A stretch of 64,000 bases of DNA from Candidatus Iainarchaeum sp. (GTDB taxonomy: Archaea; Iainarchaeota; Iainarchaeia; Iainarchaeales; 1-14-0-10-31-34), in NCBI GenBank assembly GCA_040755695.1, contig JBFMAK010000003.1, positions 101,879-165,878 on the forward strand. The letters run 5' to 3'. The notes under the pieces were generated by a model, which was not told the origin of the DNA, ran no database searches, and saw only the letters and a list, made by a program, of their open reading frames with translations. The first letter of the stretch is position 1, and the number at the start of each line of letters is the position of its first letter. Below, one piece after another: positions 2,224 to 15,681 of the stretch. The translations under genes were made by a program, and so were the position numbers.

Positions 2224-3186
2224 ATGAAAAGAATTTTAATTACCGGGGTCAATGGTTTTGTTGGAAGCCATCTAAGCGAATTTTTATTGAACAACAATTT
2301 AGGAGAAGTGAATGGAGTTTTAAGAAACAAACATGAATCACTAAAAAATTTATCCAATATAAAAGAAAAAATTAAATTAATTGAAGCAGATATTAATGAT
2401 TTAAATGCAATCTCTGAAACAATAAAAGAAGTTCAGCCAGAGGTAATATTCCATCTTGCAGCACAGGCTTTTGTGCCAAGCTCATGGAATTCTCCTTTCG
2501 AGACATTAAACACAAACATCATGGGTTCACTGAACTTGTTTGAAGCAGTAAGGAAAAGCAATTCCAACCCGGTAATCCAAATAGCAGGAAGCAGCGAAGA
2601 ATACGGCCTGGTTAAAGAGGACGAAATCCCAATAAAAGAAAGCAACCCGCTAAGACCATTAAGCCCCTACGGAGTCAGCAAAGTAGCAATGGACATGCTC
2701 GGCTATCAATACTTCAAAAGCTACGGAATGAAAATTGTCAGGACAAGAGCATTCAACCACACGGGCCCAAGAAGAGGCGAAGTATACGCCACAAGCAATT
2801 TTGCGCACCAGATAGCAGAAATCGAAGCAAAAAAGAAAGAGCCAATATTATATGTTGGAAACCTTGAAGCAAAAAGAGACTTCACTGATGTTAGAGACAT
2901 GGTGAGGGCTTACTGGCTTGCAACGCAAAAATGCAAACCAGGAGAAGTATACAATATCTGTTCAGGCAAAAGCTACGCAATAAAGGAAATCATAGACAGA
3001 TTGATCAACCTGAGCAAAAACAAAAAAATCAAAATAGAGCAAGACCCAAAAAGAATGAGACCAAGCGATGTGCTAAATCTTCTGGGAGACAGCAACAAAT
3101 TCAGAAAAGAAACAGGCTGGAAGCCTGAAATAACATTCGAGCAAACCTTGAAAGACCTGCTTGACTACTGGAGAGCAAACATTTAG
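2224..3186 (+). CDS. NAD-dependent epimerase/dehydratase (GDP-mannose 4,6-dehydratase/reductase family)
   Basis: MKRILITGVNGFVGSHL Rossmann GxxGxxG, YGVSKV catalytic YxxxK, and FNHTGPRRGE motif. GGAGGT RBS lies 8 nt upstream of the ATG at 2224. The longer track ORF from 2146 overlaps the upstream gene. Confidence 0.75.
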   Translation: MKRILITGVNGFVGSHLSEFLLNNNLGEVNGVLRNKHESLKNLSNIKEKIKLIEADINDLNAISETIKEVQPEVIFHLAAQAFVPSSWNSPFETLNTNIMGSLNLFEAVRKSNSNPVIQIAGSSEEYGLVKEDEIPIKESNPLRPLSPYGVSKVAMDMLGYQYFKSYGMKIVRTRAFNHTGPRRGEVYATSNFAHQIAEIEAKKKEPILYVGNLEAKRDFTDVRDMVRAYWLATQKCKPGEVYNICSGKSYAIKEIIDRLINLSKNKKIKIEQDPKRMRPSDVLNLLGDSNKFRKETGWKPEITFEQTLKDLLDYWRANI

Positions 3187-4010
3187 GAAAGCCTTCTTTT
3201 CCTGAATTCCCTGAATGCCTCAATTGTTCCCTCAAACAATTTTCTTTTTGTTAAATGAATCCTTTTAATTTCTTTCATTTTCTCAGTTTTAATTTTGCTT
3301 TTATCCCCTACAAAATAGAATTCATAACTTAATTTCCTTTTCCTTAAAGGCTCAATCATTCTCAAGTCAGAAGGGCTGTCCCCGAAAAGCCTGTAAAACC
3401 TTACTCTCCTTCTTTGAGGCCCAAGCATTCCGAGAGCCTGGTCTGCAGCAAAAGCCTTGCTCACAGCAAAAGGCAAAAGGTCAACGGCATAAAGGCTTCT
3501 CACTACATGAAATCCTTTGTGTTTTAAAGAAATTTCTCTCATTAATTTTTCTGTTTTCTTAAGTCCTTGTTCAACAAGCACTGGATTCTTTCTTTTGATT
3601 TCATGAATGGCCTCAATTGTCACAACAGCTTGTTTTGTTTTATCATAAAACACGCCAGGAATTAATTTCACTTGCCTTCTAACCTTTTCCATTATATTTT
3701 TTGGAACACTAATTCTTCTGTTAATTTCCCTGATTAATTTTCCGCCAGAAATTCTTGCTGTAACAAGGCCGTGCTCGCCGACAAAAGAAATGTTATTCAC
3801 CGCATTAGGAAATTTTGCTTCAAAAGAATTGATTACCGGCAGCAGGTTTTTTTGAACCCAGTCAATCGAACGCCCTGAAACAAAGAAAACCTTGTGGCCC
3901 TCATTTGCTTTTTTCATGAACTCAAGTACTGCTTTTGGCTTTACATTGGCAAAGGCCCCAGTTACAGGCCCATCAATGTCAACCAGAAAACAGTCAATTC
4001 CATTTTGCAT
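3183..4010 (-). CDS. HAD-superfamily hydrolase (sugar-phosphate phosphatase-like, HAD-IIB)
   Basis: N-terminal FLVDIDGPV (DxD motif I), 275 aa. It sits in the sugar-nucleotide gene cluster. Confidence 0.6.
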   Translation of the reverse strand: MQNGIDCFLVDIDGPVTGAFANVKPKAVLEFMKKANEGHKVFFVSGRSIDWVQKNLLPVINSFEAKFPNAVNNISFVGEHGLVTARISGGKLIREINRRISVPKNIMEKVRRQVKLIPGVFYDKTKQAVVTIEAIHEIKRKNPVLVEQGLKKTEKLMREISLKHKGFHVVRSLYAVDLLPFAVSKAFAADQALGMLGPQRRRVRFYRLFGDSPSDLRMIEPLRKRKLSYEFYFVGDKSKIKTEKMKEIKRIHLTKRKLFEGTIEAFREFRKRRLS

Positions 4011-4640: not shown

Positions 4641-5417
4641 ATGATTGGATTGATTGGAGGCTCAGGATTTTATGACACGGCAATGCTCAAGAAAACAGAG
4701 CAGAAAAAAGTGCACACGCCATTCGGTGCGACAAGCGATTTGGTTACAACGGGAGAATTTGAAGAAAAAAAGATTGCATTCATTCCAAGGCACGGGGCAA
4801 AACACTCAATCAACCCATCGCAAGTGAATTACAGGGCGAATATCCAGGCAATGAAAGAATTAGGCGTCCAAAGAATAATTGCAGCAAACGCTGTAGGCTC
4901 ACTAAAAGAAGAAATGAAGCCAGGCGAGCTTGTAATAGTTGACCAATTCATTGATTTAACGAAAGGCAGAAAAAACACTTTCTATGAAGGCACGCAAGTA
5001 TGCCATATTTCTACTGCAGAGCCCTTCTGCAAAGAACTGAGAAAAATACTGATTGAATCAGCACAAAAACTAAGCCTGCCATTCCACGAGAAAGGAACAT
5101 GCATTGTAATTGAAGGCCCAAGGTTCTCAACAAAAGCAGAATCCATTCTCTTCAAATCATGGGGTGCAGACATAATAAACATGACCTTGTGCCCTGAAGC
5201 AGTCCTTGCAAGAGAAGCAGAAATATGCTATGCAGCAATAGCAATGGTAACAGACTACGACTGCTGGAAGGACAGCCATGCCACAGGAGCAGAAGTAGTG
5301 AAAATAATGAAAGAGAACGTCCACAAAATGCAAATGCTTGTAAAAGAAGCAATTCCACTTATCCCAGAGCAAAGGAAATGCGAATGCAAGGACGCATTAA
5401 AAAGCGCAATACAATAA
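4641..5417 (+). CDS. mtnP: 5'-methylthioadenosine / purine nucleoside phosphorylase
   Basis: MIGLIGGSGFYD start and overall PNP/MTAP family pattern. AGGAGG RBS before the ATG at 4641. Confidence 0.8.
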   Translation: MIGLIGGSGFYDTAMLKKTEQKKVHTPFGATSDLVTTGEFEEKKIAFIPRHGAKHSINPSQVNYRANIQAMKELGVQRIIAANAVGSLKEEMKPGELVIVDQFIDLTKGRKNTFYEGTQVCHISTAEPFCKELRKILIESAQKLSLPFHEKGTCIVIEGPRFSTKAESILFKSWGADIINMTLCPEAVLAREAEICYAAIAMVTDYDCWKDSHATGAEVVKIMKENVHKMQMLVKEAIPLIPEQRKCECKDALKSAIQ

Positions 5418-11061: not shown

Positions 11062-13833
11062 ATGGCTTTGAATGCAATAACAATTATAGGCGCAGGACCT
11101 GTTGGGTTAAAGACAGCAATAGAGTTAAAGAAGGAAGGCTGGGACCCAAAAGTAATAGAAGAACACACTGAAATTGGGGTTCCAGAAAACTGTTCAGGCC
11201 TCATAAGCGTTTCAGGAGTAAAAGAAACAAAATTAGACGTAGAAGACATTACAGTCAACAAAGTCAAAGGCGCAATAATCAAAGCGCCTAATGGAATTGA
11301 ATTAAAAATAGAGAGAAGCAGACCAGTGGCATATGTTATAGAAAGAAAGAAGTTAGACAAAAAGTTTTATGCCGAAGCCCTCAAAAAAGGAATTGAGGTA
11401 AGGACAGAGACAAGGCTCATAGACCTAAGGAAAGACACCTTATTCCTGCAGTTCAGGCAGAGAGGCGAAATGATGAAAACAGAGCTTCTCATAGGAGCAG
11501 ACGGCGTGAACTCAAAAATAAGAAAATTAATGAATTTAGGCGCGAACCCAGAGCACTTTGTCCTCACAACGCAAGTGAGAGCAAAAGGCTCATTCAACAA
11601 AGACTTCGTGGAATTAAGTTTTGGAGAACAGTACAAAGGATTCTTTGCGTGGACAATTCCAGAGAGCAGTACAACAGCAAGGATTGGGGTTGGAGTAAAG
11701 CCAGGCATGAACCCAAAAACTGCCCTTCAGAAATACATGAATGGAATGAAAGTAGAAGTATTAAGCGAAAGCTCTTCACTGATTCCAATAGGAAAGCCCC
11801 TGAGAGAAATTTCAACAGAAAAAATTCTTTTACTGGGAGACGCTGCCTTTCAAACAAAAGCAACAAGCATTGACTATGAAGAGCCAATAATAATATTAGA
11901 AAACGGTCTGATTAAGACTGTTAGGATAGGAGAATTAATAAATAATGAAATGAAAAAAAACGAGAACAATATAAAAACTATCACTGGAAGCCCTGAAATA
12001 AAGCTATTGGAACTAAAAAAAGAAATTAATTCTTTTTCTCCAATGAAAAATGGCTCAGAACCCAAATTTAGAAAAATAGCAAACATTCTAAAACATTCAA
12101 TAAAAGAAGACTTGTATGAAATTATTCTCGAAAAAGGCTATAGAATAAAAGCAACTGAATCACACAGCATAATTACTTTGGGGCAAAAACAACTTGAAGA
12201 AAAGAAGGTTTCAGAACTAAAAGCAAACAAAGACCATTTATTAATGTGCACACGCCTGCCAAACAATGAAATACTAAAAGAAATAAACATCATTGAATTT
12301 ATTTTAAGAGAAAAACCAGAATTAATCCCCTTAATTAGAGTTAAAGGGGGAAGAAAATACATTTTTTCAAAACAAAGTGAAGTACCCAAAAATTTGTTGA
12401 CAGCTTACTGGTATGAAGATTCAATTCCATTAAAAGTTTTTGTTGAAAAAGGTATAATACCAAAAGATGCAAGAATAAGTTACTTAAAATCAGGTTTAAA
12501 AATAAAAAACGGGCTTCAAATCACGCCGGAATTATGTAGGCTGTTAGGGTATTATGTTGCAGAAGGCAGTTGTAAAAAAGGAAAAAATATTAGTTTGACT
12601 TTCGGCAAACAAGATATTGAGAACGGAATAGTAGAAGACACAATTAAATGTATTCAATATGTTTTTGAATTTAAACCAACAAAATATCAGTACAAAAAAA
12701 ACCCTTTAACCAAAAAGATTTCAGCTGTAACAATAACCTTTGGTGGTTCATTACTTTCAGAACTTTTCTCTAATATTTTGAAAGGCGGAAGAAGCGCCAA
12801 AACAAAAGAAGTACCTTTCATTATTTTTAATGTGCTAGAACACCTTAAAATTGAATTCTTAAAGGGTTATCTCAACGGCGATGGAACAATAAGAATAAGA
12901 GAATCAAGTAAAAGAAAGAACTGGAATGCAGAAATTTCTTGCAAGACGGTAAGCAGAAAACTTGCAAGTGACTTAATAACCCTTTCTCTTCAGATGGGAA
13001 TGCTTCCAAGTATAGAAGAGTTTTCTGCTAAAGAAAGAAAAATCTATGGCAAAAAAATTGTTGAAAGCAATGGTTACAAAGTGGCTTTCTCAAAAAAAGA
13101 GGACTTACTGAGACTTTCAGAAGTTTTCCCAAAAAAAACAAGTGAGTTAATTGGTTTTCTTAATGAAATTAAATCAAAATCAACTTCGGGCATACCAAAA
13201 GAATATTTTGCCTTCACTTCAAACCAAAAATATGCTACAGAACTAATAGAAGAATTTGGGCCATCAATATATACAGCTTACAATAAACTTGATTCTAAAA
13301 GAGTTTCCTTTGCAATGCAAAAAATGATAACAAAAAACGAAAGAATTCAATTAATACAAAATTTAATTCAATCAAATATTGCAGTATTTAAAATAAAAGA
13401 AATAAGAAAAGTTAAACCAACCAATAACGAAGTTTTTGATGTTCACATCCCAGAAACAAACATGTTTGTTGGAGGGCTTGGAGCAATACTCCTTCATAAT
13501 ACAGGCGGGGGCATTATTACAGGAATGATGGCAGCAGAAGCAGCAGTAAAGACAATAAGCAATTACTACAAGAAAAAAAAGCCTTTAACTGAATACAGCA
13601 AACACTTAAGCCATTTAAACAAGGAATTAGAATTGCACTGGAGGATAAGAAAATACTTGAATTCACTGAACGACAAGCAATTGAACGAACTGTTCATCAA
13701 ACTAAAGAAAGCAAGAATTGAAGAATTCCTTGCAGAGCACGGCGACATGGACAGGCCCTCAAAATTCATGGGCAAAATCCTTACAACCCCAAGGCTGTGG
13801 AGCCTGGCACCATTAGCATTAAAGCTCAGGTGA
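11062..13833 (+). CDS. Geranylgeranyl reductase (FAD-dependent, archaeal lipid saturation) interrupted by an intein
   Basis: IIGAGPVG FAD dinucleotide motif and ELLIGADGVNSKIR motif. The GGR signature GDAAxxxxPxTGGGI is split as GDAAFQTKAT | intein | TGGGI. Confidence 0.85.
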   Translation: MALNAITIIGAGPVGLKTAIELKKEGWDPKVIEEHTEIGVPENCSGLISVSGVKETKLDVEDITVNKVKGAIIKAPNGIELKIERSRPVAYVIERKKLDKKFYAEALKKGIEVRTETRLIDLRKDTLFLQFRQRGEMMKTELLIGADGVNSKIRKLMNLGANPEHFVLTTQVRAKGSFNKDFVELSFGEQYKGFFAWTIPESSTTARIGVGVKPGMNPKTALQKYMNGMKVEVLSESSSLIPIGKPLREISTEKILLLGDAAFQTKATSIDYEEPIIILENGLIKTVRIGELINNEMKKNENNIKTITGSPEIKLLELKKEINSFSPMKNGSEPKFRKIANILKHSIKEDLYEIILEKGYRIKATESHSIITLGQKQLEEKKVSELKANKDHLLMCTRLPNNEILKEINIIEFILREKPELIPLIRVKGGRKYIFSKQSEVPKNLLTAYWYEDSIPLKVFVEKGIIPKDARISYLKSGLKIKNGLQITPELCRLLGYYVAEGSCKKGKNISLTFGKQDIENGIVEDTIKCIQYVFEFKPTKYQYKKNPLTKKISAVTITFGGSLLSELFSNILKGGRSAKTKEVPFIIFNVLEHLKIEFLKGYLNGDGTIRIRESSKRKNWNAEISCKTVSRKLASDLITLSLQMGMLPSIEEFSAKERKIYGKKIVESNGYKVAFSKKEDLLRLSEVFPKKTSELIGFLNEIKSKSTSGIPKEYFAFTSNQKYATELIEEFGPSIYTAYNKLDSKRVSFAMQKMITKNERIQLIQNLIQSNIAVFKIKEIRKVKPTNNEVFDVHIPETNMFVGGLGAILLHNTGGGIITGMMAAEAAVKTISNYYKKKKPLTEYSKHLSHLNKELELHWRIRKYLNSLNDKQLNELFIKLKKARIEEFLAEHGDMDRPSKFMGKILTTPRLWSLAPLALKLR
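11866..13500 (+). other. Intein (545 aa) with LAGLIDADG homing-endonuclease domain, inserted in GGR
   Basis: Starts with Ser (SIDYEE...). Block B TESHSIIT, LAGLIDADG blocks LLGYYVAEGS and LKGYLNGDGT, and terminal ...VFDVHIPETNMFVGGLGAILLHN followed by +1 Thr (TGGGI). Confidence 0.8.
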
Positions 13834-13861: not shown

Positions 13862-13945
13862 TGAATTTGCAGAGCAAATTCCTTTTTTTCTTTTAGTTAA
13901 ATTTTTCAAGCTTTGCTTGAAAATTTTCAAAGCCCTGCTTTGAAA
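13862..13945. terminator. Three consecutive hairpins plus T-runs between convergent GGR and tRNA genes
   Basis: gaatttgc-agag-gcaaattc followed by cttttttt; ttttcaagc-ttt-gcttgaaaa; tttcaaagc-cct-gctttgaaa followed by tattttctttttt. Confidence 0.4.
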
Positions 13946-13974
13946 TATTTTCTTTTTTGTAAAAAGAAAAAGTT

Positions 13975-14070
13975 AGCCCCGAGGAAATTTGAATCTGCGG
14001 ATTCAAAAACCTCGTGTCTGATAGCCCCGAGGAAATTTGAATCTGCGGATTCAAAAACCTCGTGTCTGAT
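13975..14070. repeat. Two tandem 48-bp direct repeats, each carrying a degenerate copy of the tRNA-Gln 3' end
   Basis: agccccgaggaaatttgaatctgcggattcaaaaacctcgtgtctgat occurs at 13975-14022 and 14023-14070. Its reverse complement ends ...TTCAAATTTCCTCGGGGCT, versus ...GTTCGAATCTCCTCGGGGCT in the tRNA. Confidence 0.8.
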
Positions 14071-14142
14071 AGCCCCGAGGAGATTCGAACTCCTGTCATC
14101 TCCTCCAGAGGGAGACATCCTTGACCGCTAGACTACGGGGCT
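14070..14142 (-). tRNA. tRNA-Gln (anticodon CUG)
   Basis: Minus-strand sequence AGCCCCG-TA-GTCT-AGCGGTCAA-GGAT-G-TCTCC-CTCTGGA-GGAGA-TGAC-AGGAG-TTCGAAT-CTCCT-CGGGGCT-A folds as a cloverleaf with all four stems paired. Anticodon loop is CT-CTG-GA. A1:U72 is typical of archaeal tRNA-Gln. CCA is not encoded. Confidence 0.85.
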
Positions 14143-14217
14143 GGATTAAAACAAATTAGTGGAAATAAAATTAAAAATTGTTGTTTAAGAAACACTGAAT
14201 AAATTAGTGACTAAATG

Positions 14218-14694
14218 TTAAGTGACAACGCATATGGCTCCATTTTTTTGTTTGTCACTGAATACTTGATTAGGCGTAAAATATTTAAGGCTTGAGTGCG
14301 GAGTGTTGTTGTACTCGCGCTGGAAGCGCGAGAGTAAGCGGTTAGCGTGTTTGAGGTTTTGAACCTCGAACTCATTCAAGAATCGTTTTATTTTTTTGAT
14401 GACTGCTTCTGCTTTTCCGTTGCATTTGGGATTGTGAATGCGTGTGTGAATGTGTTTGATGCCTAATAGACTGGCATCAAAGTTTTTGTGGTATTGTCTA
14501 CCATTGTCAGATAACAAGGCTTTGAATCCCCCCGTTTCTCGGATTGCTTGTTGTAGGTTGTCTATTGTGTTTGCAAGCGTTGCATGAGAATATGCTTGCA
14601 GTGCAAACAGTTTTCTGGATGCATCATCTTCATAGAATGAGAAGCAACAGTGTACTCCATCCAAAATGCGTTTTCTGCCCCAATCCGTATGCAT
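14218..14694 (-). CDS. Transposase C-terminal part (integrase core rve domain, DDE)
   Basis: HTDWG ... LLSDNGRQY ... NPKCNGKAEAVIKK match the D, D, E regions of rve transposases. The reading frame probably continues upstream of the first Met. Confidence 0.65.
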   Translation of the reverse strand: MHTDWGRKRILDGVHCCFSFYEDDASRKLFALQAYSHATLANTIDNLQQAIRETGGFKALLSDNGRQYHKNFDASLLGIKHIHTRIHNPKCNGKAEAVIKKIKRFLNEFEVQNLKHANRLLSRFQREYNNTPHSSLKYFTPNQVFSDKQKNGAICVVT

Positions 14695-14778
14695 TAATGA
14701 TAAAGCGTGCCTGCGCTCGTAACGCTTGCATTTTGTCTTTGGTTTGGGTTTTGGAGGAAACCAACGCTTCTTATAGCG

Positions 14779-15111
14779 TTATACTGTCCTCAAGCAAACC
14801 TTTCCCAAAGCTATCCATGCAAGCGTGCTGGACTTTCCTTGCACCAGCAAGGCTCTTAACCTGTTCAAGACAGGTTGCACTGTTTTGTTCCAGATTCTTT
14901 TGGCCTTTCTCTTAAACCTGATTGGTTGACCAGACAATGTGCGGTTCAACCAACGCGAAAGAGTCTTTCGCGGAATCCGCAAGACTCTATCTAACTCTCT
15001 CTGGCTAACCTGGCCAGAAACAAGTCTGGCGACTGCTTTTTCAACAATATCATTGCTATATTTTATAGTGGGAACCTCCATTCCGTTACTCAAAAAATGG
15101 AGTTCCCACAA
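14779..15111 (-). CDS. Transposase N-terminal HTH part (orfA)
   Basis: VSQRELDRVLRIPRKTLSRWLNR is a helix-turn-helix. It is in a different frame from the rve ORF, so a frameshift, programmed or pseudogenising, is implied. Confidence 0.5.
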   Translation of the reverse strand: MWELHFLSNGMEVPTIKYSNDIVEKAVARLVSGQVSQRELDRVLRIPRKTLSRWLNRTLSGQPIRFKRKAKRIWNKTVQPVLNRLRALLVQGKSSTLAWIALGKVCLRTV

Positions 15112-15222
15112 CTTTAAAACCCGCGTCTTAAAGTGGGGGCATATCCGCTGTCATGCAACAACTAAAGAGATTTATTAATAATTTGCTATCAATATAATTT
15201 AACAAGTGTAAAAAGGCTGTTT

Positions 15223-15681
15223 ATGGATAAATCAAAAATTGATGAACTTATACGCAAGGCAGGGTATGAGATTAAAGTAGACAAAATACCAGAAGGATAT
15301 ACGCCCGGAATTATTATTAGAATTCAAAAAGGAAAAACCCATGCTTTTATTGATATTCATATTGAAAATAATAAGGCGTATTTTGGAAAACTCCACATAG
15401 GAAATGTAGAAAAAGGAGTGTGGCACAAGCCTGGGCATATATCAGCTGCAAAAGCTATTGATCTCATGCTCTATACAACAGAAAGAGAACTAAAAAAAGA
15501 ACGGGTTAAAATAATTCAAGGATGGCCTGGCCCACAGCTTGAGAGATTGTTAAGGAGAAGAGGTTACAATTTAAAAAAACAAGAGTATTATGGTTTTGAT
15601 ATAAAAAAAAGGATTGGAAGAAAAAATCCGCTTCCACTTATATTACAGAGCAAAGTTAAAAAAGCGATTAAAAAAATTTAA
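15223..15681 (+). CDS. Hypothetical basic protein
   Basis: 152 aa, Lys/Arg-rich, no recognised family. Lies immediately beside the IS. Confidence 0.4.
   Translation: MDKSKIDELIRKAGYEIKVDKIPEGYTPGIIIRIQKGKTHAFIDIHIENNKAYFGKLHIGNVEKGVWHKPGHISAAKAIDLMLYTTERELKKERVKIIQGWPGPQLERLLRRRGYNLKKQEYYGFDIKKRIGRKNPLPLILQSKVKKAIKKI

Follow-up and report, generated by a model that had tools for sequence, protein, structure and literature searches.

Hairpin-forming copies of a tRNA 3' end in tandem behind a tRNA-Gln gene of Candidatus Iainarchaeum

The window, i.e., the whole 64,000-nt stretch of Candidatus Iainarchaeum DNA analyzed here, includes a tRNA-Gln(CTG) gene flanked by the conserved genes GGR and UPPS, and this housekeeping GGR-tRNA-UPPS synteny is unbroken at the locus. 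The tRNA gene has neither an intron nor an encoded CCA. Two 48-bp units follow it in tandem, directly on its 3' side, and an insertion sequence (IS) sits 74 bp upstream, on its 5' side. In window coordinates, the features are:

13961-13973, minus strand: T-rich tract ACTTTTTCTTTTT after the last tRNA-end copy (from the sequence and the flanks of relatives)
13974-14021, minus strand: distal 48-bp unit, a perfect copy of the proximal one (100% identity, exact repeat), with arms at 14000-14019 (inverted) and 13975-13995 (direct), the loop at 13996-13999 and a final A at 13974
14022-14069, minus strand: proximal 48-bp unit (exact repeat), with a TC linker, arms at 14048-14067 (inverted) and 14023-14043 (direct), the loop CGCA at 14044-14047 and a final A at 14022
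14070-14089, minus strand: O1, the last 20 nt of tRNA-Gln from T-loop to discriminator, TTCGAATCTCCTCGGGGCTA (repeat search and sequence reading)
14070-14142, minus strand: intact tRNA-Gln(CTG) (ARAGORN; Rfam tRNA model, 63.2 bits, full length 1-71)
14143-14209, minus strand: AT-rich spacer from the tRNA 5' end to the IS target duplication (from the sequence)
14210-14215: left copy of the target-site duplication ACTAAA, an identical hexamer at both IS ends
14216-15160, minus strand: IS481-like IS, 945 bp
14216-14245 and 15131-15160: imperfect terminal inverted repeats (TIRs) starting TGTT, 22/30 matching
14218-15081, minus strand: DDE (rve) transposase pseudogene in a single reading frame
15161-15166: right copy of the target-site duplication ACTAAA

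The preliminary description had recognized the IS as an rve-type DDE transposase element ending at 15160, and both points were confirmed: the transposase matches Pfam rve and rve_3, and blastn aligned five independent copies (L001-L005) at 80% nucleotide identity over exactly this span, with the end alignments agreeing. Its TIRs, given there as matching at 13 of 16 positions, match at 11 of 16 when counted. The transposase reading frame is interrupted by an in-frame TAA at 14779-14781, which leaves ORFs 14779-15111 and 14218-14694 in the same frame; homologues of 282 aa are 82-83% identical, and the intact ones have Gln at the stop position. The best NCBIfam match was NF033577 (IS481; 112.6 bits, aligned 6-284/284, E 2e-32), a score below the cutoff of 224. 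Members of IS481 are ~0.95-1.3 kb long, have TIRs that start TGT, and duplicate 4-15 bp of their target. The element shares with this family a DDE (rve) transposase in a single ORF that has an HTH at its N terminus, a length of 945 bp, TGTT ends, and a 6-bp target duplication, but represents a distant archaeal (DPANN) branch with a sub-cutoff score and an in-frame stop. All related copies are likewise flanked by NNTANN. The IS had also been called GC-rich and compositionally foreign: its GC content of 0.433 does lie above the window mean (0.394, sd 0.028), but 5% of all 945-bp windows are at least as GC-rich, and the case for a foreign character is weak. Overall, the IS is an independent simple transposition, unrelated to the 48-bp units and now decaying. 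The tRNA promoter presumably still lies within the spacer at 14143-14209, where a TATA-like TTTTTAATTTTATTT occurs ~25-40 nt upstream of the gene.

On the 3' side, the two perfect tandem repeats reported earlier were recovered right after the tRNA gene. TRF assigned the array a period of 48, 2.4 copies, and a score of 218, and a pattern search for the unit returned 2 exact matches vs 0 in 100 shuffles. Each unit ends, at 14022 and 13974, in TTCAAATTTCCTCGGGGCTA, a copy of the tRNA's last 20 nt on the same strand as the tRNA, and the degenerate tRNA-end copy previously seen there is upheld at 18/20 matches with the last 12 nt identical. This exact 12-nt repeat, at the tRNA end and at the end of each of the identical head-to-tail units, makes 3 copies in the window vs 0.17 expected. 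The template found copied in the units is O1, TTCGAATCTCCTCGGGGCTA, and the duplication extends from the T-loop as far as the discriminator base. Beyond the last copy, the tract ACTTTTTCTTTTT resembles those directly 3' of tRNA-Gln in unit-less relatives (~20 orthologous or paralogous tRNA-Gln flanks compared), and is presumed to be the native terminator of tRNA-Gln.

The 28-nt "spacer" between successive tRNA-end copies is made up of the tRNA 3' end in inverted orientation and a 4-nt loop, and the locus is thus a direct-inverted-direct triplication that folds into a hairpin of ~40 nt. There is no foreign DNA in the units, and at each of its two junctions the inverted segment forms a short-loop palindrome. 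The hairpin is imperfect: a basal helix of 10 bp and an apical helix of 8 bp are separated by a T-rich internal loop, and a tetraloop caps the latter helix; by hand count, 16 of 21 positions agree when the left arm AGACACGAGGTTTTTGAATC is set against the reverse complement of the right arm AGCCCCGAGGAAATTTGAATC. Its minimum free energy (MFE) is -15.8 kcal/mol, corresponding to z-scores of -3.3 as RNA and -5.1 as DNA. A T5 run at 14053-14057 lies inside the inverted arm of the proximal unit. Apart from tRNA, no Rfam family passed its threshold at the locus, including in a permissive scan, which returned only spurious hairpin or miRNA matches (at best mir-9080, a generic hairpin match with 33 bits vs a threshold of 100). 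Several other identities were considered and rejected. A split-tRNA half or tRNA minihelix is contradicted on inspection by the lack of a T-stem 5' strand in the copy and by a shifted pairing register. The known hairpin features of integron attC sites and IS200/IS605 elements are a poor fit, since an R'/R'' box match and dispersed copies are lacking and no gene is associated with the unit. Finally, the hairpin is not a bidirectional terminator for the convergent GGR gene, as the strand read in the GGR sense shows A-runs past the hairpin and two separate hairpin+T sites belong to GGR itself.

The same unit architecture was found directly after tRNA-Gln in 4 other genomes of Iainarchaeia (DPANN; L042, L033, L058, and L061) among ~34 loci examined. 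All five genomes share the order O1, 2-7-nt linker, reverse complement of O, 4-5-nt loop, O2, with hairpin MFE z-scores from -3.3 to -7.3, and three of them also share the 28-nt spacer length. The only 100% hits came from the source MAG, and the nearest relative has 71% UPPS identity, so that occupied and empty sites were compared above the strain level. The module type is old or recurrent in Iainarchaeia. In most orthologues with GGR-tRNA-UPPS synteny, a T-rich run directly follows the tRNA, i.e., these are "empty" orthologous sites. Within the window, no further copy of the unit was found at ≤3 mismatches, and an nhmmer profile of the unit run against 540 kb matched only units beside tRNA-Gln, with no sign of a dispersed REP/MITE-like repeat in that sequence. 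A metagenome scan for 12-mer pairs 15-45 nt apart returned 10 loci, all unrelated tandem repeats without a tRNA. At non-Gln tRNAs, a downstream 3'-end copy was seen for 0 of the ~39 ARAGORN calls in the examined loci, a sample too small to establish Gln specificity; calls of "Leu" and "Asn" with downstream copies in L042 and L058 were misread intron-bearing tRNA-Gln genes.

These homologous units bear on whether the array is real, since the source is a MAG contig and both repeats and IS elements are classic sites of mis-assembly. An artefactual tandem copy number or IS placement is nonetheless hardly conceivable: the 96-bp array is shorter than typical reads, single or multiple units recur in four independent assemblies, and the 6-bp target duplication of the IS is perfect, as a real insertion would give.

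Sequence changes among the units follow both the tRNA and the fold. In L058, the tRNA 3' end differs (CTCTCCGGGGCTA), and the unit's direct copy (TTCTCCGGGGCTA) changes along with it, as does the inverted arm (CGGAG/CTCCG vs CGAGG/CCTCG). Across alignment A4, 86% of cells pair and 10 of 18 pairs show double changes, a count made on 7 sequences and in which a common origin of the palindrome would inflate pairing. This pairing level was reached in 0 of 500 shuffles, and slid controls attained at most 58%. Compensatory changes thus preserve hairpin pairing across the unit-bearing genomes. In every well-formed unit, a run of 4-6 T's occupies the same position of the ascending arm, where pairing would need A's. 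Taken together, the covariation, this conserved internal T-run, and the presence of the module in five divergent genomes hint at selection.

On a UPPS tree, the unit-bearing genomes are scattered, and the module occurs at both the CTG and the TTG isoacceptor genes (L033 vs L054, within one MAG). To explain this distribution, one would need many losses, gene conversion between paralogues, a repeated origin, or mobility. All units carry the derived T-loop state TTCAA instead of TTCGAA, which favors common descent or a mobile origin over recurrent local origin. L061 has an array of progressively degenerate units, in which the newest and best-matching copy is the one proximal to the tRNA, and this array shows unit turnover in situ. 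At exactly a unit boundary of the same array, a different module of ~100 nt is inserted, with its own tRNA-end copy at its end, an arrangement suggestive of site-specific insertion; modules of ~100 nt are also present in L025, L038, and L050. Extra copies of the tRNA 3' end also lie 60-340 nt downstream of tRNA-Gln in L041, L025, and L051; together with those of L061, they identify the tRNA-Gln 3' end as a recombination-prone site in Iainarchaeia.

One way to account for this pattern would be a miniature non-autonomous cassette (the hairpin unit, possibly along with the larger GC-rich modules of relatives) that a trans-acting recombinase inserts specifically at the tRNA-Gln 3' end by recognizing hairpins of folded DNA, much as for integron attC sites or CIMEs. 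CIMEs are bacterial accretions of att-flanked remnants at tRNA genes, and the resemblance lies in arrays of small non-autonomous segments bounded by tRNA 3' core copies, clearest in L061 and L041; they are, however, kilobase remnants with recognizable element genes, while the segments here are non-coding and 45-190 nt long. The patchy distribution, the occupation of both Gln isoacceptor genes, the restriction of modules to tRNA-Gln in 540 kb, and a structure conserved more than its sequence would suit such a cassette, as would the tRNA-proximal position of the newest L061 copy and the second cassette type interleaved exactly at a core boundary. Conversely, no recombinase gene is associated with the units, no free or dispersed copies were found in the 540 kb, 48-bp cassettes have no known precedent, and L061 units U1-U3 have a common genome-specific linker, indicating in-situ duplication and not repeated invasion. 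We thus regard cassette insertion as improbable.

The preliminary description had read the repeats as a scar of site-specific integration. Under this scenario, a tyrosine-integrase element would have entered an att core of tRNA-Gln that extends from the T-loop to the 3' end, and the units would be decayed attL/attR with fused arm remnants, formed twice. Displaced tRNA 3' fragments are known to mark integrated islands and proviruses (Islander principle, PMC4383910), and PYG1 at tRNA-Gln(TTG) of Pyrococcus yayanosii is an archaeal example of a tRNA-Gln island (PMC9897764). As in these cases, an intact tRNA is followed by a co-oriented 3'-end copy from the T-arm region to the gene end, the T-arm being the usual sublocation of att cores in tRNA genes, and the distal copy borders a native-looking flank, in line with the Islander logic of a regenerated target and a displaced fragment (PMC4383910). 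The empty orthologous sites and the extra tRNA-end copies of L041, L025, and L051 are also in its favor. In addition, the unit copies have a left half of "element-type" (TTCAAATTT) and a right half of host type, which in L058 follows the host tRNA; a crossover within the core would yield exactly such hybrids.

What sets the locus apart from Islander and PYG1 is that its copies are 28 nt apart, that the gap is entirely an inverted core copy plus a 4-nt loop, and that integrase, cargo, and attP partner are missing; because the GGR-tRNA-UPPS synteny is intact, no integrase or element resides at the locus. Searches for attP gave 0 matches to unit-type cores in IMG/VR, a phage tRNA array as the sole match to the tRNA-type core, and no relevant attP-like match in phage and plasmid collections. 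Moreover, an insert of 48-54 bp is far too small for a recombining circle, and the same 28-nt spacer and architecture in three genomes are unlike the outcome of independent random deletions. The T-arm sublocation and the empty sites of relatives thus stand in support of an integration/excision scar, but integrase, foreign DNA, and attP were not found. Repeated integration and excision, as specifically proposed, is not supported, since the 100% identical units reflect one recent duplication and not two events, and precise excision is scarless. Wide dispersal of the unit away from tRNA genes, which the preliminary description had named as a refutation, was not seen in 540 kb, and this check therefore leaves the scar reading standing. 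On balance, we consider this origin unlikely.

An RNA-level explanation can also be drawn, in which a bulge-helix-bulge (BHB) motif directs removal of the units, as a 3' intron of non-canonical kind or an alternative 3' exon, and the mature tRNA uses a distal 3'-end copy. An archaeal BHB intron has two 3-nt bulges set apart by a 4-bp helix, with helices on either side, and its excision leaves a functional tRNA. A relaxed hBHBh'-like motif whose excised length equals the repeat period can indeed be placed between successive tRNA-end copies in five genomes, and tRNA-Gln genes of relatives do have introns. Yet this motif, with its G-U pairs and 2-bp flanks, follows trivially from the quasi-self-complementary TCGG/CCGG of the core, and the same relaxed scan gives 5-17 motifs per 150-200 nt. 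The required conformation is ~35 kcal/mol worse than cloverleaf plus hairpin (-4.5 vs -39.7), the tRNA is complete without splicing, and a putative T5 terminator lies 12 nt past it. Splicing of this kind is therefore most improbable.

For the origin of the units, we give about an even chance to a locally generated palindromic trailer module that was amplified by slippage and possibly acts in tRNA termination. The ~20-bp end of tRNA-Gln (T-loop, T-stem 3' strand, acceptor 3' strand, and discriminator) would have been copied downstream once inverted and once direct, and the structure suggests that both copies arose when replication switched templates or snapped back at short palindromes. Template switching at quasipalindromes is a close known counterpart. 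Subsequently, the 48-bp module (linker, inverted arm, loop, and direct arm) would have been duplicated once, recently, probably via slipped-strand mispairing or unequal crossing-over between 12-20-bp direct repeats; such a recent duplication would explain why the copies are 100% identical. The internal T-run may now provide the tRNA gene with its oligo-T terminator. The hairpin itself may be either weakly functional, as a 3'-trailer or terminator structure, or held palindromic by intrastrand templated repair. Counting against this reading are the scattered distribution of the units over both isoacceptor genes, the TTCAA state common to all units, and the second module inserted at a unit boundary in L061.

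Known systems come close to this local origin. Repeats distal to E. coli tyrT reportedly comprise a 178-bp unit present ~3 times, each with the last ~19 nt of tRNA-Tyr. They resemble the units here as tandem repeats right after a tRNA gene, each with a tRNA 3'-end copy and ascribed to unequal recombination, but are bacterial, longer, not tRNA-end hairpins, and encode a small protein. In ODIRA and related models, inverted triplications or tandem inversion duplications arise when templates are switched at short inverted repeats (PMC4689423). The direct-inverted-direct order, the short interrupted palindromes at both inversion junctions, and the later tandem expansion correspond to these models, whereas the ~20-bp copies (vs kilobases), the lack of an included replication origin, and the persistence over long evolutionary time in several genomes do not.

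A broader proposal is that tRNA-Gln of Iainarchaeia forms an accretion platform for hairpin cassettes, which would comprise 45-54-nt units (tRNA 3' end plus complement) and larger GC-rich modules of 100-190 nt ending in a tRNA-end copy. These would be either inserted by a structure-recognizing site-specific process or maintained as a cis element for tRNA 3'-end formation. We hold this to be a long shot; if true, it would define a previously undescribed class of tRNA-linked element.

Overall, the units are best read as a small curiosity common to a few related archaea and not as the scar of a virus or plasmid integration. The IS is one more example of an IS481-like family that is widespread in DPANN. 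If the units are a mere product of replication error, they would offer a clean, small-scale natural case of direct-inverted-direct triplication followed by slippage. They would then also warn against taking tRNA 3'-end copies next to a tRNA gene, on their own, as a sign of integration, a point of relevance to island-finding pipelines that use tRNA fragments. To our knowledge, transcription termination and tRNA processing in DPANN archaea are almost unexplored, and if the units are instead kept by selection, they would point to a cis element of this group, so far unstudied, that acts in termination or in forming the tRNA 3' end.

Read on the minus strand, a 48-nt unit (TCAGACACGAGGTTTTTGAATCCGCAGATTCAAATTTCCTCGGGGCTA) stands twice, directly beyond the discriminator A of the window's only tRNA gene, tRNA-Gln(CTG); the sequence then continues as ACTTTTTCTTTTT.

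Features of the tRNA-Gln locus (window coordinates)
11062-13833, plus strand: geranylgeranyl-reductase (GGR)-like FAD oxidoreductase gene adjoining the tRNA, with an intein at roughly 11890-13500
13863-13881 and 13925-13945, plus strand: two terminator-like sites (hairpin plus T-run) after the GGR gene
13899-13952: tandem 21-22-bp repeat
14069-14022 and 14021-13974, minus strand: the two unit copies (sequence reading)
14070-14142, minus strand: tRNA-Gln(CTG) (ARAGORN; Rfam tRNA 63.2 bits, full length)
14210-14215 and 15161-15166: perfect 6-bp target duplication ACTAAA on both sides of the insertion sequence (IS)
14216-15160: IS, 945 bp, ends set by end alignments
15223-15681, plus strand: 152-aa ORF between the IS and UPPS, the other flanking gene

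The preliminary description of perfect tandem 48-bp repeats immediately after the tRNA and ending in copies of its 3' end proved correct: TRF returned a period of 48 with 2.4 copies (score 218), an exact search gave two matches to the unit in the window and 0 in 100 shuffles, and the last 20 nt of unit and tRNA agree at 18/20, with the last 12 nt identical (three copies in all vs 0.17 expected). Nor is the unit a generic dispersed repeat unrelated to tRNA genes: no copy was found elsewhere in the window, and an nhmmer unit profile run against 540 kb of loci matched only units adjoining tRNA-Gln.

The 28-nt stretches between one tRNA-end copy and the next are not foreign. Each unit opens with a 2-nt linker (TC) and a 20-nt arm (AGACACGAGGTTTTTGAATC), turns through a CGCA loop into a 21-nt arm (GATTCAAATTTCCTCGGGGCT) and closes with a final A; the first arm, compared with the second in reverse complement, agrees at 16/21 (hand count from the arm sequences). 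The fold of the unit has a basal helix CGAGG/CCTCG that can extend to 10 positions; above this come a T-rich internal loop and an 8-bp apical helix, capped by a tetraloop (MFE -15.8 kcal/mol; z = -3.3 with RNA and -5.1 with DNA parameters). The order at the locus is tRNA end (direct), inverted, direct, inverted, direct, i.e., an inverted copy fills the space between tRNA-end copies, so that the locus is a direct-inverted-direct triplication with its 48-bp inverted-plus-direct module doubled; each inverted segment has short-loop palindromes at both junctions (ATC and CGCA). The modules show no difference from each other (100% identity) but two from the tRNA's own copy, which indicates that the doubling was a single recent event between 12-20-bp direct repeats and rules out two independent insertions as the source of the paired units.

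These repeats had been read as the scar of repeated integration and excision of an element at a tRNA-Gln att site. The copied block does run from T-loop to discriminator, the classic sublocation of att cores; the logic of a regenerated target and a displaced fragment holds (PMC4383910), and an archaeal island at tRNA-Gln provides an example (PMC9897764). In relatives, additional copies of the tRNA end lie downstream of tRNA-Gln at a distance of 60-340 nt (loci L041, L025 and L051 of other genomes), and L061 has a ~100-nt GC-rich module exactly at a unit boundary with its own terminal tRNA-end copy. However, the locus lacks integrase or element DNA, the defining test of an integrated island. 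There is neither integrase nor cargo, foreign DNA is absent between the tRNA-end copies, the 48-54-bp insert is too small for recombination as a circle, precise excision does not leave a scar, and no attP-like partner was found in IMG/VR, phages or plasmids. We consider an integration scar unlikely.

The IS sits across the tRNA from the repeats, 74 bp upstream of the gene's 5' end; it is an ordinary element that arrived by simple transposition and is unconnected with the repeats. Five independent copies resemble it at 80% DNA identity and a sixth at 70%, over ~14210-15165, and the TGTT... terminal inverted repeats match at 22/30 and, over the first 16 positions, at 11/16 on recount instead of the 13/16 first reported. 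NNTANN stands on both sides of every related copy (L001-L006), which suggests that the target duplication of this DPANN IS481-like element is 6 bp centred on TA; most of the copies are on contigs of ~1 kb, as would be expected if multi-copy elements break the assemblies. Pfam finds rve and rve_3 in the single reading frame; among family profiles IS481 fits it best (NF033577, aligned over the full length, with 112.6 bits, short of the cutoff of 224), and homologues of the transposase (282 aa) occur across Diapherotrites, Nanoarchaeota and Micrarchaeota. An in-frame TAA (14779-14781) replaces a conserved Gln, making the window copy a pseudogene. A DDE (rve) IS is present beside the tRNA as described, but calling it GC-rich overstates a GC of 0.433, only 1.4 sd above the window mean. 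A 12-nt near-repeat upstream of the tRNA (AACAAATTAGTG / AATAAATTAGTG, 14150-14161 and 14198-14209), also spaced by 48 nt, is probably chance in AT-rich DNA. The 152-aa ORF has no Pfam domain, matches only its own GenBank entry among 5.8 billion proteins, and is not present at relatives' syntenic loci.

Scanning GTDB species genomes with the 20-mer core yielded 40 loci, 27 from DPANN archaea (mostly Iainarchaeum), and further orthologous loci added via UPPS homologues gave ~34 distinct tRNA-Gln loci in all; the nearest relative in the protein database shares only 71% UPPS identity. The conserved order GGR, tRNA-Gln(CTG), UPPS (tblastn) identifies many scanned loci as orthologous. Units of the window type directly follow tRNA-Gln in 5 of the ~34 loci.

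Loci with units
Window: two units after tRNA-Gln(CTG)
L042: one unit, orthologous CTG gene
L058: one unit after tRNA-Gln
L061: one good unit and three progressively degenerate units
L033: one unit, at the TTG isoacceptor; none at L054, the CTG locus of that MAG

Genomes with units are scattered across the UPPS neighbour-joining tree. In ~18 of the remaining loci a T-rich tract lies within a few nt of the tRNA end, and the sequence beyond the last tRNA-end copy at unit-bearing loci resembles these tracts, so that the module is an insertion into an ancestrally "empty" site. That it is a miniature mobile cassette seems to us improbable. Relatives' tRNA-Gln genes can carry introns (L042 ~3490-3560, L061 4798-4822, L044/L052, L058 ~5100-5135), in several at the canonical site after the anticodon, in L058 in the D-arm region, and such genes were missed or mislabelled by ARAGORN in bacterial mode; the window's tRNA-Gln has no intron.

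All well-formed units form the same two-helix hairpin (z between -3.3 and -7.3). In a MAFFT alignment of only seven sequences (A4), the structure pairs 86% of cells against ≤58% for slid controls, and both sides have changed in 10 of 18 pairs, which 0 of 500 shuffles reached; part of this pairing arises by construction, since the arms share a palindromic origin. Covariation is clearest in L058, where the tRNA has CTCTCCGGGGCTA in place of CTCCTCGGGGCTA, the unit's direct copy tracks it (TTCTCCGGGGCTA), with a compensating change in the opposing arm (CGGAG/CTCCG vs CGAGG/CCTCG). Every well-formed unit has a T4-T6 run in its ascending arm (GGTTTTTGAA, GCTTTTTTGAA, GCGTTTTGGG, AGTTTTTGGA and again GGTTTTTGAA), at a site where pairing would require A's. 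Oligo-T is the archaeal terminator signal, and we take the kept run to reflect selection for such a tract at a distance of 12-20 nt past the tRNA, where it may function as a terminator.

No Rfam family was found for the units or for relatives' modules. A split tRNA or minihelix is ruled out, since the T-stem lacks its 5' strand. All five genomes allow a relaxed bulge-helix-bulge motif whose excised length equals the repeat period, but a splicing role is very improbable: the motif uses G-U pairs, each locus has 5-17 of the kind, the quasi-self-complementary TCGG/CCGG of the core produces it trivially, and its conformation is ~35 kcal/mol worse than cloverleaf plus hairpin.

The surroundings of tRNA-Gln look like a recurrent home for homing endonucleases, the window intein included (~537 aa, LAGLIDADG homing-endonuclease domain; Pfam Intein_splicing aa 277-813; ending ...LLHN|TGGG); intein-free colinear GGR orthologues occur in at least 8 related genomes. 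The two terminator-like sites, lying between GGR and the tRNA-end repeats, are related palindromes in a short tandem. Directly after tRNA-Gln of both isoacceptors, relatives also carry GC-rich, hairpin-dense, non-coding modules of 100-340 nt, some terminated by a degenerate tRNA 3'-end copy, with common motifs (CTGTCAGCTTGACACCAGTG, GTGCCAGCTAACGTTTCAGCTG, TCTGCGATAGAGCATTAATATT) seen nowhere else in the 540 kb of loci; they may represent an unknown ncRNA or else small cassettes flanked by att sites.

Features beside tRNA-Gln in relatives
L058 4124-5155 (overlapping the tRNA 5' region), L062 2114-3052, L063 2079-3017: free-standing LAGLIDADG_3 genes immediately beside tRNA-Gln
L017 ~4665-4815, L022 1-250, L025 2300-2714, L038 6038-6175, L041 243-601, L050 ~3160-3264: GC-rich modules
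L051 4130-4370, L056 180-360, L061 4909-5028, L062 3180-3400, L064 4806-4990: further GC-rich modules

The window locus resembles displaced tRNA fragments, in the direct repeat of the 3' end, and the distal repeats of E. coli tyrT. It also resembles, at miniature scale, inverted triplications (PMC4689423). As far as we found, no description exists of a hairpin module that derives from the tRNA end and is conserved after tRNA-Gln in several DPANN genomes. Its anatomy, distribution and covariation are observed; we infer its origin, duplication mechanism and function, and give the whole account about an even chance. A replication error of template-switch or snap-back type would have copied the tRNA 3' end in inverted plus direct form, and slippage or unequal crossing-over between direct repeats would have altered copy number, leaving two identical copies in the window and, in L061, an array that is old and decaying. 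Pairing, for which intrastrand templated repair of the quasi-palindrome offers an alternative, and the internal oligo-T are maintained, most simply because the module may now be the tRNA's terminator or 3'-trailer region.
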